The notes beneath the pieces were generated by a model that made no database searches, was not told where the DNA came from, and saw nothing but the letters and a program-made list of their open reading frames with translations. From IMG/VR virus record IMGVR_UViG_3300012943_000031, positions 42,837 through 106,836 of that record: a DNA stretch of 64,000 bases; one strand, 5' to 3'. The translations under genes and the position numbers were made by a program. Origin of the DNA: a virus. This document shows positions 3,733-7,796 of this stretch, piece after piece. The stretch's first letter is position 1. Each line of letters begins with the position of its first letter.

Positions 3733-4839
3733 ATGGCTTGTAACGAACAAAATCCATGCAATCAAGACCCATGCCCAGATTTATATGACAACTGTGGCTG
3801 TGTTAATCCAAATACGTTTGGATGTACTACCTATACAGGGACATCATTAGAATGTCTTGATATAGACAATGGTACAAATGGGGATGATGTATTGGGTAAA
3901 ATTGAAGAGGCTGTATGTGACCTTCAGGAGAACAAAGGTAAAGTTCTTATTGATGGCACAGATACATGTCCTGAATACCTATTTGATAAACTAGAAGAAG
4001 GTACTAATATCTCTTTCAATATCACTGGAACAGGATGTGATAGAAAATTAGTTATTAATGCAGTAGAAGGTGGTGAACCAGTAGATGTTAATGTAAAAAT
4101 TACATCTAATGACACAACTTCTGGATACCTTGACCAAAAGATTCAGACAGGTACATACTTAACTAAATCTGTAGTTTCTCCTACAGCTAATGAAAAACTA
4201 AGATTAGACGTAAATGTAGCATCTTTAGTATCTGGAGATTCAGGTAACCAATTAACAATTGGAGGTGATGGTGGTCTTAAGACTTTATATACTGCACCTG
4301 ATGGAAGTGAAACTAAGGTTATGCAGGGTACAGGAACTACTGTAACAGGTACTGGTACTGTAAGTGATCCTTACATAGTATCTACTAACCCGACTATCCA
4401 AGTAGCACGTCCATGTTTTGATGGAGTATGGAGAAACATAACATTGGCCCTAACAGGTAATGTGAATGTTGTTTATGCATCAGGAACACCTCAGTTCAGG
4501 TATCGTTTTGATGGTACTATTGAGTTTAGAGGTTCAATTACCTACACAGTTGATTTCGGAGCATACACTACTGCTAACAGAAAATACACCATCCCTATGG
4601 GAAGTATTGCTGTAACATGTGTAACTGCTGGTGAATTAATTGGCACAAAAGACTTAAAAGGAATAAATTATATAGATGTACCACAGGCTGGTGCTGACCA
4701 ATATACACAAATGTATGGATACATACTACGTATGTCAGCACAGAACTTAACTTTAGAGTTCCAGTCTTCGTTTATTAACAGTACATCAAAATCTATAGTG
4801 GTTAATTTGGAAGGAGCAGTAGTTCATCCAAATATATAA
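3733..4839 (+). CDS. Putative tail fibre/virion protein
   Basis: Cys-rich N-terminus similar to 1874 protein, Gly/Thr-rich repeats (GTGTTVTGTGT), FRYRFDGTIEFRG fibre-tip-like end. Confidence 0.55.
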   Translation: MACNEQNPCNQDPCPDLYDNCGCVNPNTFGCTTYTGTSLECLDIDNGTNGDDVLGKIEEAVCDLQENKGKVLIDGTDTCPEYLFDKLEEGTNISFNITGTGCDRKLVINAVEGGEPVDVNVKITSNDTTSGYLDQKIQTGTYLTKSVVSPTANEKLRLDVNVASLVSGDSGNQLTIGGDGGLKTLYTAPDGSETKVMQGTGTTVTGTGTVSDPYIVSTNPTIQVARPCFDGVWRNITLALTGNVNVVYASGTPQFRYRFDGTIEFRGSITYTVDFGAYTTANRKYTIPMGSIAVTCVTAGELIGTKDLKGINYIDVPQAGADQYTQMYGYILRMSAQNLTLEFQSSFINSTSKSIVVNLEGAVVHPNI

Positions 4840-4885
4840 TAACTATTGAAAACCTCGGTTGTTGGTTCTCCGAGAACAGTTTATA

Positions 4886-4910
4886 GGGCCATCTCTATGG
4901 CCCTTTTTAT
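4886..4910 (+). terminator. Intrinsic terminator
   Basis: AGGGCCAT-CTCT-ATGGCCCT-TTTT. Confidence 0.85.
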
Positions 4911-4911
4911 C

Positions 4912-4926
4912 TGGCACAATTTTTGA
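4912..4926 (+). promoter_or_regulatory. Candidate sigma54-type promoter (-24/-12)
   Basis: TGGCAC-N5-TTGA; a second copy lies at 10960. Confidence 0.4.
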
Positions 4927-4946
4927 ACATTATAAATATAAAAGCT

Positions 4947-4994
4947 ATGACAATCTTAAAAGGTGGAGGATGTGGATGTGGTGGAAAAAAATAA
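4947..4994 (+). CDS. Candidate micropeptide MTILKGGGCGCGGKK
   Basis: A-rich upstream context, downstream of candidate sigma54 promoter. Confidence 0.35.
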   Translation: MTILKGGGCGCGGKK

Positions 4995-5016
4995 TTTCCC
5001 ATTTTCACAAAATAAA

Positions 5017-5048
5017 TTTGGAATTTGCCAAATTACTTCGTATATTTG
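5017..5048 (+). promoter_or_regulatory. Bacteroidota housekeeping promoter of tRNA operon 1
   Basis: TTTG(5017)-N20-TATATTTG(5041). Confidence 0.85.
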
Positions 5049-5052
5049 CATT

Positions 5053-5142
5053 ATGAATTTACATCGTACACATACATGGTTTACTACTTGTCCCCAATGT
5101 CCATTTGGAGGAGAAGGGTGTTGTATGTGTGAAAATAAATAA
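5053..5142 (+). CDS. Leader peptide 1 (MNLHRTHTWFTTCPQCPFGGEGCCMCENK)
   Basis: ATG 4 nt after the -7 box; codons 4-18 use only H,R,T,W,F,C,P,Q, the tRNA set downstream; overlaps antiterminator arm. Confidence 0.85.
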   Translation: MNLHRTHTWFTTCPQCPFGGEGCCMCENK

Positions 5143-5162
5143 GTTTTTTCTTATTCATACTT

Positions 5163-5209
5163 AAAAACCCTTCAGTAATCCAATCACAACTGAAGGGTTT
5201 TTTCTTTTT
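5163..5209 (+). terminator. Attenuator terminator 1
   Basis: AAAAACCCTTCAGT/ACTGAAGGGTTTTT stem + T tract, 2 nt before tRNA-Pro; 5' arm alternatively pairs with GAAGGGT(5113) in the leader. Confidence 0.85.
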
Positions 5210-5211
5210 AT

Positions 5212-5287
5212 CGGGTAGTGGGAGAATGGTTAGTCCACTATGTTTGGGGCATAGAAAATGTCAGTTCGAGTCTGATCTACCCGACCA
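5212..5287 (+). tRNA. tRNA-Pro(TGG)
   Basis: CGGGTAG/CTACCCG acceptor, CTATG-TTTGGGG-CATAG anticodon arm, CCA. Confidence 0.93.
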
Positions 5288-5293
5288 AATAAT

Positions 5294-5369
5294 GCCAGTG
5301 TAGCACAACAGGTAGTGCAGTACTCTTGTAAAGTAAAGGTTGCAAGTTCGATTCTTGTCACTGGCTCCA
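5294..5369 (+). tRNA. tRNA-Thr(TGT)
   Basis: GCCAGTG/CACTGGC, loop CTTGTAA, CCA. Confidence 0.93.
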
Positions 5370-5377
5370 AATTATAT

Positions 5378-5451
5378 GGCCGTATAGCCAAGTGGTAAGG
5401 CACATGTCTGCAAAACTTTGATCCCCAGTTCGAATCTGGGTACGGCTTCCA
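5378..5451 (+). tRNA. tRNA-Cys(GCA)
   Basis: GGCCGTA/TACGGCT, loop CTGCAAA, U73, CCA. Confidence 0.92.
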
Positions 5452-5454
5452 TAT

Positions 5455-5529
5455 GGTGCACTAACTCAATGGTAGAGTTCCTCCCTGAAAAGGAGGGTGT
5501 TCCCAGTTCAAGTCTGGGGTGTACCACCA
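5455..5529 (+). tRNA. tRNA-Phe(GAA)
   Basis: CCTCC-CTGAAAA-GGAGG, CCA. Confidence 0.93.
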
Positions 5530-5532
5530 CAT

Positions 5533-5603
5533 ACGGGTATGGTGAAATGGTATCATAACAGTCTCCAAAACTGCTGTTCAGGGTTCGAATCCTTGTACCC
5601 GTG
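5533..5603 (+). tRNA. tRNA-Trp(CCA)
   Basis: ACGGGTA/TACCCGT, loop CTCCAAA, G73, no encoded CCA end. Confidence 0.92.
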
Positions 5604-5655
5604 CTTTTTCTTATTCCCACATTTCCCTGAGAAATCAAACTTGTGGGTTTCGTAT

Positions 5656-5729
5656 TGTCTCATGGTGTAATGGCAACATAAGAAGCTTTGACCTTCTTGT
5701 TTCAGGTTCGAGCCCTGATGGGACATCCA
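5656..5729 (+). tRNA. tRNA-Gln(TTG)
   Basis: AGAAG-CTTTGAC-CTTCT, U1-A72, CCA. Confidence 0.92.
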
Positions 5730-5734
5730 AATAT

Positions 5735-5805
5735 TACCTTATAGTGTAATGGTAACACACCACTCTCTGAAAGTGTTGTTTAAGGTTCGAGTCCTTATAA
5801 GGTAA
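5735..5805 (+). tRNA. tRNA-Gln(CTG)
   Basis: TACCTTA/TAAGGTA, loop CTCTGAA. Confidence 0.9.
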
Positions 5806-5807
5806 CT

Positions 5808-5881
5808 GTGACTATAGCTTAATGGTTTAGAGCCCTTGGTTGTGACCCAAGGTAGTGTCAGTTCGAATCTGATTAGTCACC
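5808..5881 (+). tRNA. tRNA-His(GTG)
   Basis: GTGACTA/TAGTCAC, CTTGG-TTGTGAC-CCAAG, C73. Confidence 0.92.
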
Positions 5882-5886
5882 TAAAT

Positions 5887-5957
5887 GCCCTATTAGTATA
5901 ATGGAAGTATCTGAGAATACGAATCTCAGGGTAGGAGTTCAAATCTTCTATAGGGTT
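5887..5957 (+). tRNA. tRNA-Arg(ACG)
   Basis: GCCCTAT/ATAGGGT, TGAGA-ATACGAA-TCTCA. Confidence 0.88.
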
Positions 5958-5990
5958 CTGGTACACTTCTTGCTATATGAAAGTATGGTA

Positions 5991-6161
5991 ATGAAAGGTA
6001 AAAATAAACTAGAAAGAATGGAATTACGTGCTGCTAAAAGATTTAACAGACGTTCTAAGAAAATAAAATTCCATCTTACTAATGATTGGAGTTGGACATT
6101 TCCTATCCCTAAAGAGGGAATTCCAAAAATAGTTGAAGAAATATTTGGAAACGGCAAATAA
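5991..6161 (+). CDS. Small basic hypothetical protein (MKGKNKLERMEL...)
   Basis: 3' part of the 5901 ORF lying outside tRNA-Arg. Confidence 0.45.
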   Translation: MKGKNKLERMELRAAKRFNRRSKKIKFHLTNDWSWTFPIPKEGIPKIVEEIFGNGK

Positions 6162-6175
6162 ATGTCGTATCTTTG
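6144..6175 (+). promoter_or_regulatory. Bacteroidota promoter of tRNA operon 2
   Basis: TTTG(6144)-N20-TATCTTTG(6168). Confidence 0.85.
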
Positions 6176-6202
6176 TATTATAAAATTTAAAAGCAGCAAA
6201 TA

Positions 6203-6277
6203 ATGTACTTAATAAATATGATAGTGGATAGAATTAATGGGGCAGAGAAATCTGGCTCTGGACTTCTATTGTCATAA
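6203..6277 (+). CDS. Leader peptide 2 (MYLINMIVDRINGAEKSGSGLLLS)
   Basis: Codons 4-16 use only I,N,M,V,D,R,G,A,E,K, the tRNA set downstream; 3' end is the antiterminator arm. Confidence 0.85.
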   Translation: MYLINMIVDRINGAEKSGSGLLLS

Positions 6278-6302
6278 TCATAGTACTGATTACCAATATT
6301 TT

Positions 6303-6341
6303 AGAAGCCCAGAGCCTACGAAAGTTAGCTCTGGGTTTTTT
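6303..6341 (+). terminator. Attenuator terminator 2
   Basis: AGCCCAGAGC/GCTCTGGGTT + T tract 3 nt before tRNA-Lys; 6302-6316 is complementary (14/15) to 6254-6268. Confidence 0.88.
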
Positions 6342-6344
6342 AAT

Positions 6345-6417
6345 GCCCTTGTAGCAAACTGGTTGTAGGCAATAGTCTTTTAAACTATGGGGTCTGGTTC
6401 GATTCCAGACGGGGGTA
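6345..6417 (+). tRNA. tRNA-Lys(TTT)
   Basis: ATAGT-CTTTTAA-ACTAT, GTTCGATTC T arm. Confidence 0.9.
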
Positions 6418-6425
6418 CACAATAT

Positions 6426-6497
6426 GCAGGATTAATTCAATGGTAGAAATCCATCTTTACATGGTGGAAGCTGGGAGTTCGAGTCTCTCATCCTGTA
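6426..6497 (+). tRNA. tRNA-Val(TAC)
   Basis: GCAGGAT/ATCCTGT, CCATC-TTTACAT-GGTGG. Confidence 0.9.
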
Positions 6498-6503
6498 CAA
6501 TAA

Positions 6504-6575
6504 CTCTCTATAGCACAATGGAAGTGTAACTGCCTTCTAAGCAGTTTGGTATAGGTTCGAATCCTATTAGAGAGT
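6504..6575 (+). tRNA. tRNA-Arg(TCT)
   Basis: CTCTCTA/TAGAGAG, ACTGC-CTTCTAA-GCAGT. Confidence 0.92.
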
Positions 6576-6620
6576 CAGGTCAGTTTTCCAATTCTGCGTG
6601 GAGTACAAAATTGGATATAT

Positions 6621-6692
6621 TCCTCATTAGCTCAATGGTAGAGCGCAAAGCTGTTAACTTTGGAGATTTAGGTTCGAGTCCTAAGTGGGGAG
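6621..6692 (+). tRNA. tRNA-Asn(GTT)
   Basis: CAAAG-CTGTTAA-CTTTG, G73. Confidence 0.93.
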
Positions 6693-6702
6693 CATAATTA
6701 CA

Positions 6703-6777
6703 TGTAGGGTGGACTGGAGATGGTTCCAGCTTGGTCTCATAAGCCAAATGACAGGGGTTCGAATCCCTTCCCTGCAT
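6703..6777 (+). tRNA. tRNA-Met(CAT), possibly initiator type
   Basis: TTGGT-CTCATAA-GCCAA, TGTAGGG/CCCTGCA. Confidence 0.85.
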
Positions 6778-6783
6778 CTATAC

Positions 6784-6934
6784 TGTAAGGTGGTGAAATA
6801 GGCAGACACATCCACTTGTCTCGTGGACACAGATAAAGAAATAGATTAGGTATAATGGGGTTGACCACTAATGTTTAACTTATTGTGTATCTAATTGAAT
6901 CTCTGTATGAGTGGTTCAAATCCCTCCCTTACAG
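6784..6934 (+). ncRNA. tRNA-like RNA with ~80-nt variable arm (loop TTGTCTC)
   Basis: TGTAAGG/CCTTACA acceptor, Leu/Ser-type D arm GTGAAATAGGCAGACAC, TCCAC/GTGGA stem, long hairpin insert, GGTTCAAATCC T arm. Confidence 0.75.
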
Positions 6935-6940
6935 CAACAT

Positions 6941-7014
6941 TGCACATTAGCCAAGAGGTCTAAGGCATCACTCTCATAAGGTGACATTCATGAGTTCGAA
7001 TCTCATATGTGCAA
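6941..7014 (+). tRNA. tRNA-Met(CAT) elongator (Ile2 not excluded)
   Basis: TGCACAT/ATGTGCA, TCACT-CTCATAA-GGTGA. Confidence 0.85.
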
Positions 7015-7043
7015 CATTTGATAATTTTCCTTATATTTGTAAA

Positions 7044-7511
7044 ATGGAAAAGTATTTCAGAACAGAGCAAGGAGAAAGAGTAAATATAGTTGAACACACT
7101 TTGGAACAAATCCAGAAGTGGCCCAACCTAGAGATTTACATAGCAACAGACTCTCAAGACCAAGGTGGAAAGAGTAGATATGCTACAGTAATTGTCTACA
7201 GATATGGGAAAAGAGGTGCTCACTATATATACTTTAGAGAAGACGTACCACGTTGTAAGGACATGTATACTCGTCTATATGATGAGGCTGTTCGTACAAT
7301 TGATACAGCACAGTTAATAGACAGTGAGATACCTGTTAAGTTTGCCGGGTTAGAGTTTGACTACAATAACCTACCAAGACATAACAGTAACAAATTACTC
7401 TCTTCTGTAAGAGGATGGGTAACAGGATTAAATTACAATGCTGTCTTCAAAGGTGATGAATTAGTAGCTGCAAAAGCTGCTGACCATGTTTGTAGACACA
7501 AGAATATATAA
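7044..7511 (+). CDS. RNase H-like YkuK/DUF458 family protein
   Basis: IYIATDSQ, RLYDEAVRT, AAKAADH motifs; start moved to 7044 (after TATATTTG box, outside tRNA). Confidence 0.8.
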   Translation: MEKYFRTEQGERVNIVEHTLEQIQKWPNLEIYIATDSQDQGGKSRYATVIVYRYGKRGAHYIYFREDVPRCKDMYTRLYDEAVRTIDTAQLIDSEIPVKFAGLEFDYNNLPRHNSNKLLSSVRGWVTGLNYNAVFKGDELVAAKAADHVCRHKNI

Positions 7512-7546
7512 GAGATGGATTGCAGCACTCTTTAAAATGCTGATTT

Positions 7547-7620
7547 GCAGAGGTAGTTAAATGGTATAATGCCTTCCTTCCAAGTAGGATTTGGGAGTTC
7601 GATTCTCCTCCTCTGCTCCA
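7547..7620 (+). tRNA. tRNA-Gly(TCC)
   Basis: GCAGAGG/CCTCTGC, loop CTTCCAA, U73, CCA. Confidence 0.92.
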
Positions 7621-7621
7621 T

Positions 7622-7693
7622 GCATTAGTAGCTCAATGGTAGAGTACTACCTTGCCAAGGTAGGAGTTGACAGTTCGAATCTGTTCTAGTGCT
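7622..7693 (+). tRNA. tRNA-Gly(GCC)
   Basis: CTACC-TTGCCAA-GGTAG, U73. Confidence 0.92.
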
Positions 7694-7699
7694 CAATAA

Positions 7700-7773
7700 C
7701 ATGCTGTCATCTAATGGCTTAGGATAACGGACTTTCAATTCGTTCATGTCGGGTTCAATTCCCACCAGCATGA
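7700..7773 (+). tRNA. tRNA-Glu(TTC)
   Basis: CATGCTG/CAGCATG, ACGGA-CTTTCAA-TTCGT, bulged T stem. Confidence 0.88.
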
Positions 7774-7796
7774 CTAACAACTAAAGTCGAAGGACA

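Follow-up and report, generated by a model that had tools for sequence, protein, structure and literature searches.

Why phages carry tRNA genes, and when they need them, is a long-standing question. One proposal is that phage tRNAs replace host tRNAs that are hit by defences (PMC10264068). The locus described here raises a more specific form of the question, as nine tRNA genes lie directly downstream of a short leader with its own promoter, a small ORF and a terminator: what would decide when these tRNAs are made? A first-pass annotation of positions 5053–5209 had proposed a complete attenuator of the 1:2, 2:3 and 3:4 type, and this architecture is supported by constrained folds, by seven related leaders and by the match of the leader's amino acids and Arg codon to the downstream tRNAs. 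On the basis of the sequence and of the folding models, we consider it likely that the element, which measures about 190 nt including its promoter, is a ribosome-mediated (leader-peptide) transcription attenuator controlling a phage operon of nine tRNA genes. Within this mechanism, we infer the translation of the ORF, the conditional termination and the physiological signal.

A candidate promoter and leader ORF precede nine tRNA genes

The window (the whole stretch of 64,000 nt that was analysed) comes from a phage-like contig 132,658 bp long and includes a region rich in tRNA genes. ARAGORN found 26 tRNA genes at 5212–10560, all on the plus strand, and Rfam agreed. The first tRNA block and the features upstream of it are as follows.

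5017–5048, plus strand: Bacteroidota-type promoter, with a −33 TTTG (5017–5020), a 20-nt spacer and the −7 box TATATTTG (5041–5048)
5053–5142, plus strand: putative leader ORF, 29 codons and a TAA stop (5140–5142), peptide MNLHRTHTWFTTCPQCPFGGEGCCMCENK
5062–5106, plus strand: sensor run of 15 codons (codons 4–18, HRTHTWFTTCPQCPF; H R T H T W F T T C P Q C P F)
5212–5958, plus strand: the nine tRNAs taken to be regulated, Pro(UGG), Thr(UGU), Cys(GCA), Phe(GAA), Trp(CCA), Gln(UUG), Gln(CUG), His(GUG) and Arg(ACG) (ARAGORN, Rfam)

The −7 box recognized by the primary sigma factor in Bacteroidota, TAnnTTTG, was found 93 times against an expectation of 69 ± 8, an excess which suggests that the host probably belongs to the Bacteroidota. 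The sigma-A box of Flavobacterium is positioned at −12 to −5 (PMC9723704). The same position here would place the transcript start on the A of the leader AUG (A5053), which predicts a leaderless mRNA. The box-to-ATG spacing of 4 nt at the leader ORF is equal to that at ORFs of 155, 819 and 2076 amino acids and at leader 3 in the window; thus, the leader AUG has the appearance of a normal gene start for this phage. Only 2 nt separate the end of the U tract from tRNA-Pro, so the interval between terminator and tRNA has no room for a promoter. Within the tRNA block, the single plus-strand match to TAnnTTTG (5239–5246) is inside tRNA-Pro.

Two further putative attenuators of the same phage lie at 6204–6343 (attenuator 2) and 9850–9984 (attenuator 3) of the window. 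Attenuator 3 is preceded by the same extended promoter as attenuator 1 (at 9810–9845), as is an amber-suppressor-type tRNA (anticodon CTA, 9099–9171) whose own −7 box, TATATTTG, is at 9080–9087. The consensus common to the promoters at 5013–5048, 9810–9845 and 9055–9087 reads A(A/T)ATTTGGAA, spacer, GTATATTTG, which suggests that the tRNA units are driven by a single class of phage promoter. The suppressor tRNA is followed by a gene for a Pth2-like peptidyl-tRNA hydrolase (PF01981, 9189–9664).

The array holds several other features. Just 5′ of the attenuator-1 promoter is a micro-ORF, MTILKGGGCGCGGKK (4948–4995), the RNA of which is G-rich. A 57-codon Lys/Arg-rich ORF (5990–6161) between tRNA-Arg(ACG) and the attenuator-2 promoter (6168–6175) is apparently co-transcribed with tRNA block 1. 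The 160-nt stretch between two tRNA-Met genes (6785–6940) could represent a tRNA carrying a long insertion: its ends resemble a tRNA acceptor (CTGTAAGG ... CCTTACAG), and GGTTCAAATCC resembles a T arm. No tRNA was called at these positions by ARAGORN or Rfam. An HNH endonuclease gene (7797–8192; phrog_23251, E = 6e-35) is located inside the array, and other phage-type genes are interspersed among the tRNAs. Rfam gave a weak match to archaeal RNase P RNA between tRNA-Leu and tRNA-Ser (10179–10358; 19.9 bits, E = 0.011). Positions 10566–10638, missed by both ARAGORN and Rfam, are likely to form a class-II tRNA-Tyr with the anticodon loop CTGTAAA, which would complete the 20-amino-acid set.

The leader codons match the downstream tRNAs

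Codons 4–18 of the leader specify all eight amino acids that the nine tRNAs downstream carry, and no others (15/15 codons). This run is the longest of its amino-acid set in the six frames of the 64-kb window, in which 0.002 such runs were expected. Most amino acids are sampled by 1–4 codons, which is below the sampling in classical leaders. Decoding of the sensor codons ACU, ACC and CCC by the phage tRNAs would need U34 superwobble, which is plausible, with one U34 tRNA per four-codon box.

The match extends to the Arg codon family. The Arg codon of the sensor run is CGU or CGC in 7/7 attenuator-1 leaders, with tRNA-Arg(ACG) downstream, and AGA in 6/6 attenuator-2 leaders, with tRNA-Arg(UCU) downstream; the phage's own genes use AGA for 61% and CGT for 30% of their Arg codons. 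When 41 tRNA blocks were tested blind, significant runs were found only in members of the group of related leaders described below, and the others followed the null expectation. Such a run is absent from most other tRNA blocks linked to Pth2, so the amino-acid match test is not trivially positive.

A match between codons and downstream tRNAs would also be expected if the leader RNA read tRNAs directly by codon–anticodon pairing, in the manner of a T-box and with no ribosome. We regard this as extremely improbable: Rfam gave no T-box match in 4800–10800 at E values up to 1, the specifier-loop and T-box motif architecture is absent, and the 15 codons lie in frame behind an AUG at the start of the transcript, which is consistent with translation.

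The leader RNA can form three alternating helices

Folding of the leader attenuator, which we continue to treat as ribosome-mediated, gave the following elements.

5067–5089, plus strand: segment 1, comprising the outer strand (5067–5076) and inner strand (5082–5089) of the 1:2 anti-antiterminator hairpin in the minimum free energy (MFE) fold
5091–5112, plus strand: innermost hairpin at the tip of 1:2 (−6.2 kcal/mol), kept in both the terminator and the antiterminator states
5113–5132, plus strand: segment 2, in ORF codons 21–27, with segment 1 or segment 3 as its partner
5138–5155, plus strand: small A/U hairpin AAUAAG/CUUAUU, which spans the stop codon and forms the tip of the 2:3 antiterminator
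5155–5176, plus strand: segment 3, UCAUAC and the terminator 5′ arm AAAAACCCUUCAGU (5163–5176)
5189–5209, plus strand: segment 4 (terminator 3′ arm, 5189–5202) and the U-rich tail to 5209

The pairings listed in the first-pass annotation were borne out. In helix 1:2, TACACATACA (5067–5076) pairs with TGTATGTGTG (5122–5131) through 10 bp, one of them G–U, and forms the outer stem of the MFE fold. For helix 2:3, the proposed pairs of GAAGGGT (5113–5119) with ACCCTTC (5167–5173), GTATG (5123–5127) with CATAC (5156–5160) and AATAAG (5138–5143) with CTTATT (5150–5155) are all canonical (18/18). This pairing scores −16.2 kcal/mol, and RNAfold favours a register a few bases away (−19.2 kcal/mol), in which GUGUGA (5127–5132) pairs with UCAUAC (5155–5160). 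The 3:4 terminator pairs 5163–5176 with 5189–5202 through 14 bp around a 12-nt loop (−17.5 kcal/mol), followed by the U-rich 5203–5209. The positions given for the sensor codons (5062–5106) and the stop codon (5140–5142) also agree with the sequence. GAAGGGU of segment 2 (5113–5119) is identical to part of segment 4 (5192–5198); such mimicry of segment 4 by segment 2 is usual for antiterminators.

Folded alone, helices 1:2 (5067–5131), 2:3 (5113–5173) and 3:4 reach −23.4, −17.7 and −17.5 kcal/mol, respectively. The MFE fold of the whole leader (5053–5209; −44.9 kcal/mol) consists of the long hairpin with 1:2 as its outer stem, the A/U hairpin at 5138–5155 and the 14-bp terminator, and leaves 14 nt at the 5′ end unpaired. 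None of 200 dinucleotide shuffles was as stable as the whole leader (z = −4.78) or as the 2:3 region (0/200; z = −3.55), indicating structure beyond chance in both. A synonymous recoding test gave p = 0.047 for 1:2 and p = 0.13 for 2:3; its power is low, as the peptide itself (Thr and His against Cys and Met) encodes most of the complementarity. A search of Rfam with 5053–5209 at E values up to 1 returned no match, including to the His, Thr, Trp, Leu and Phe leader families, and on this ground we rejected the reading of the element as a member of a known leader family.

These structures also bear on whether the ORF is translated at all. The RNA could instead be a structured 5′ leader of pre-tRNA-Pro, acting in processing or stability, or a constitutive partial terminator that fixes tRNA at a low level. 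The U tract does adjoin the 5′ end of the tRNA, so RNase P would strip off the whole leader. We nevertheless judge this very improbable, because the frame, the AUG at the predicted start and the amino-acid set are conserved across contigs despite synonymous drift, and because the alternative 2:3 helix, for which a fixed terminator has no need, is conserved and covaries.

Modelled ribosome position determines which helix can form

A leader-peptide attenuator should change its fold with the position of the ribosome, which we represented by a footprint mask from −15 to +13 of the A-site codon on a transcript cut at 5188, ahead of segment 4. The antiterminator proposed in the earlier annotation formed in these constrained folds: the probability of its core was about 1 with the A site at codons 1–16, 0.58 at codon 17 and 0 at codons 18–27. 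Thus, the sensor run ends where the ribosome begins to mask segment 2. The antiterminator likewise drops at the end of the run in two of the related leaders described below (L084 and L026), and partly in a third (L093).

In the full transcript at equilibrium, the probability of the terminator was about 0.95 at every stall position. We rejected this measure as a readout of stalling because it yields the terminator in every case and does not discriminate, and used cut transcripts and forced-state energies instead. As the terminator always wins at equilibrium, read-through is a kinetic argument in which 2:3 forms first, as in trp. The terminator and antiterminator states reached −44.9 and about −31 kcal/mol without a ribosome, −32.5 and −21.9 kcal/mol with a ribosome at the stop codon, and −31.2 and −29.4 kcal/mol, a near tie, with a ribosome stalled at W9. 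The terminator state was favoured by 10–13 kcal/mol when the ribosome was at codons 18–27, at the stop codon or absent. A stall would remove this advantage, and the order of synthesis would then give priority to 2:3.

The earlier annotation had also stated that the positions of the sensor codons, 5′ of segment 2, and of the stop codon, just past it, provide the geometry needed for a stall to cause read-through. The first part of this claim stands, as the antiterminator forms before segment 4 exists when the sensor codons are occupied. The second part needs a qualification: a ribosome parked at the stop codon has a footprint of about 5125–5153 and leaves GAAGGGU bare, and the 7-bp core could still form in the model. 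The termination branch therefore needs either recapture of this sequence by the inner 1:2 helix (5082–5120, −12.9 kcal/mol) or steric exclusion of a helix that encloses the ribosome. For transcripts ending at 5179–5191 without a ribosome, the MFE briefly prefers 2:3 to 1:2.

Related leaders retain the architecture

We compared the leader with those at 160 loci identified by an alignment of the neighbouring Pth2-like protein, and found more with degenerate leader patterns; the loci compared leave out the contigs of P0006 and P0007, the closest relatives (82–85% Pth2 identity). A query with the single Pth2-like protein found no related loci, whereas the alignment-based query succeeded. GenBank phages searched with 4900–6000 yielded no homologue of the leader and only scattered tRNA similarity. 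Two kinds of candidate were rejected. Matches to a degenerate C(P/T)QCPFG pattern were mostly unrelated coding sequence, and L058, L017 and L028, from a strict scan for terminators before tRNAs, have a terminator before a tRNA but no matched leader.

Homologous leaders precede the same block, from Pro to Arg, at six loci (L093, L170, L171, L172, L084 and L086; L084 shares a contig with L001, and L086 with L002). Their sensor runs comprise 10–16 codons. All eight amino acids are inside the run in L170, L172 and L086; in L093 and L084, the eighth (Phe and Arg, respectively) is just outside the uninterrupted run. A variant leader at L026, TFTQRPEQHTPCFTW, precedes tRNAs for Glu, Pro, Cys, Phe, Thr, Arg and Gln. 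It has a Glu codon, matching the Glu tRNA in its block, and retains His and Trp codons, for which the block is without tRNAs. Three other leaders (L075, L054 and L022) are unrelated, and each matches its own different tRNA set.

All seven related leaders from viral or metagenome contigs (the six homologues and L026) retain the three helices. Because a MAFFT alignment of the 3′ halves was unreliable, we relied on folds of each lineage and on permutation of cognate and non-cognate duplexes, with no column-based counting of pairs. The long 1:2 hairpin is within the ORF in all 7 lineages (z from −1.4 to −3.0), the terminator adjoins the first tRNA in every lineage, and in folds with a stalled ribosome a G-rich stretch of the ORF pairs with the 5′ arm of the terminator (2:3) in every lineage. 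The terminator sequences vary by lineage and segment 2 follows them: the cognate pairing beats 5024/5040 permutations. The wobble base of the Gly codon that follows Glu takes part in a three-way compensatory change at a synonymous site: segments 2, 3 and 4 carry G, C and G, respectively, in the window and L170, but C, G and C in L093 and L172. In addition, a Cys UGU-to-UGC change lengthens the 2:3 helix in L093 and L172.

The same comparison suggests another use for the ORF. It might encode a small Cys-rich (zinc-knuckle-like) protein, with 5163–5202 as its own leaky terminator that lets the tRNAs be made. Consistent with this, the spacing CxxC-x6-8-CxxC is kept in the window, L093, L170, L172 and L084, the motif C(P/T)QCP is conserved, and the L086 peptide is 46 amino acids long with an extra GGCGCG stretch. 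However, such a protein leaves three things unexplained: the agreement of 15 residues in a row with the amino-acid set of the downstream tRNAs, an Arg codon family that tracks the downstream isoacceptor, and the covariation of segment 2 with the terminator arm at synonymous sites. The analogous leaders of L026 and L075 have one Cys; the second CxxC is in segment 2, where its UGY codons are complementary to ACA or GCA in segment 1 and pair with them; and a protein search with the 46-amino-acid L086 form gave no homologue. We therefore consider a Cys-rich protein distinctly improbable and retain the leader-peptide attenuator.

Some features of the related loci lie outside the leader itself. The ending of the window micro-ORF, ...GCGCGG(T)KK*, recurs at the equivalent place in L170, L171 and L172, and in L086 a GGCGCG stretch continues in frame into the leader to give an ORF of 46 amino acids that starts 4 nt past its own −7 box. 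At L170 (2066–2626), and likewise at L171, about 560 nt separate the attenuator-1 terminator from tRNA-Pro. This stretch opens with a tRNA-like 5′ half (CGAGTGGTAGTTCAGTTGG...) and may be an interrupted tRNA or an insertion. The L170 locus also has an 84-nt gap where the window has tRNA-Trp.

Proposed mechanism and signal

In the mechanism that we propose, transcription would begin at or next to the AUG at 5053, and a ribosome would load at once on the leaderless mRNA and trail RNA polymerase. Slow decoding at any of the 15 sensor codons (His, Arg-CGU, Thr, Trp, Phe, Cys, Pro and Gln) would keep the ribosome on segment 1, and the free segment 2 (5113–5132) would pair with segment 3 (5155–5173) upon its synthesis. 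With 2:3 formed, the terminator would come too late, and the polymerase would continue into tRNA-Pro and the eight further tRNAs. With fast decoding, the ribosome would cross segment 2 (codons 18–27) and halt at 5140; segment 2 would then be masked or recaptured by segment 1, the 3:4 terminator would form, and the transcript would end at about 5203–5209. Without a ribosome, 1:2 and 3:4 would form, leading to termination.

Because the downstream tRNAs decode the very codons that the leader would sense, the loop would give negative feedback on tRNA supply, and any of the eight shortages, or a general slowdown of elongation, would open it. In this scheme, the phage probably makes the nine tRNAs only upon slow decoding of their codons.

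It is also conceivable that the element is a leader-peptide attenuator whose signal is amino-acid starvation or general host translation capacity rather than tRNA supply, with the codon match as a by-product; such a signal could time tRNA synthesis to a phase of infection. To a stalled ribosome, the absence of a tRNA and the lack of its charging look alike; classical attenuators answer to charging; and fifteen single-copy codons resemble a meter of translation speed more than a sensor of a single amino acid. Yet extra tRNA does not relieve amino-acid starvation, and the partition of 20 amino acids and two Arg codon families among leaders according to their downstream tRNAs is hard to explain otherwise. 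We consider this signal unlikely, and tRNA supply the more probable one.

Discussion

The closest known systems are the enterobacterial attenuators thrL (Thr, Ile), ilvL of ilvGMEDA (Ile, Leu, Val), trpL, hisL, pheL and leuL. Like these, the phage element has a short leader ORF (putative here), regulatory codons in segment 1, mutually exclusive 1:2, 2:3 and 3:4 helices and a terminator before the first gene; a stall would cause read-through here as it does there; and several amino acids are represented in one leader, as in thrL and ilvL. Unlike these, it is encoded by a phage, and the genes that it would regulate specify tRNAs and not biosynthetic enzymes. It would sense eight amino acids at 1–4 codons each, whereas the enterobacterial leaders have tandem runs; its mRNA is predicted to be leaderless; and its segment 2 is within the ORF, 21 nt 5′ of the stop codon.

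In the E. coli pheST attenuator, a leader peptide also regulates a component of the decoding machinery through the decoding speed of its own codons, but the gene is that of a synthetase for one amino acid; the phage product is tRNA, and feedback would close directly on supply. T-box riboswitches share transcription attenuation keyed to a specific tRNA through a codon, but bind uncharged tRNA without a ribosome and are not known to control tRNA genes. Attenuators 2 and 3 of the same phage share the promoter type, the plan of ORF and terminator, and the correspondence of leader amino acids to downstream tRNAs; they differ in their amino-acid sets, and the Arg codon that would be sensed is AGA in attenuator 2 but CGU in attenuator 1.

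Judged from its sequence, the element has every structural feature of a leader-peptide attenuator: a short 5′ ORF with a usable start (the 29-codon putative ORF at 5053–5142); regulatory codons that correspond to the function of the regulated genes, in both amino-acid set and Arg codon family; an intrinsic terminator downstream of the ORF and ahead of the first regulated gene; a 2:3 antiterminator (5113–5173) that excludes the terminator; and a 1:2 helix with a 5′ strand covered by the stalled ribosome, with the switch at codons 16–18. What is new is that nine tRNAs, and not biosynthesis or synthetase genes, lie downstream as the predicted regulated genes. To our knowledge, all leader-peptide attenuators described so far regulate genes for amino-acid biosynthesis or synthetases. 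We likewise know of tRNA genes as being controlled at promoters, and of leader-peptide attenuation as described for amino-acid operons and one synthetase operon. A full-text search of the literature found no description of attenuator-controlled tRNA genes. In flavobacteria, leader-peptide attenuation of amino-acid operons has been noted (PMC9723704).

Taken together, the three attenuators may form a closed-loop tRNA homeostat, in which three codon-barcoded leaders split 20 amino acids and two Arg codon families among three tRNA operons, each on only when its own codons are slow. We lean slightly towards this reading. The sensed codons and the regulated products would be the two halves of one decoding reaction, giving direct feedback on tRNA supply. 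Being compact, modular and present in several uncultured phages with different amino-acid sets, the element may serve as a codon-specific sensor of translation speed. Read-through would be a built-in reporter of the codons that are limiting during infection, which makes the question of why phages carry tRNAs testable. If the homeostat is real, it would allow the phage to make up for host tRNAs that are degraded or fall to anticodon-nuclease defences without needless tRNA synthesis, and would represent a kind of control over tRNA genes so far seen in neither cells nor viruses.
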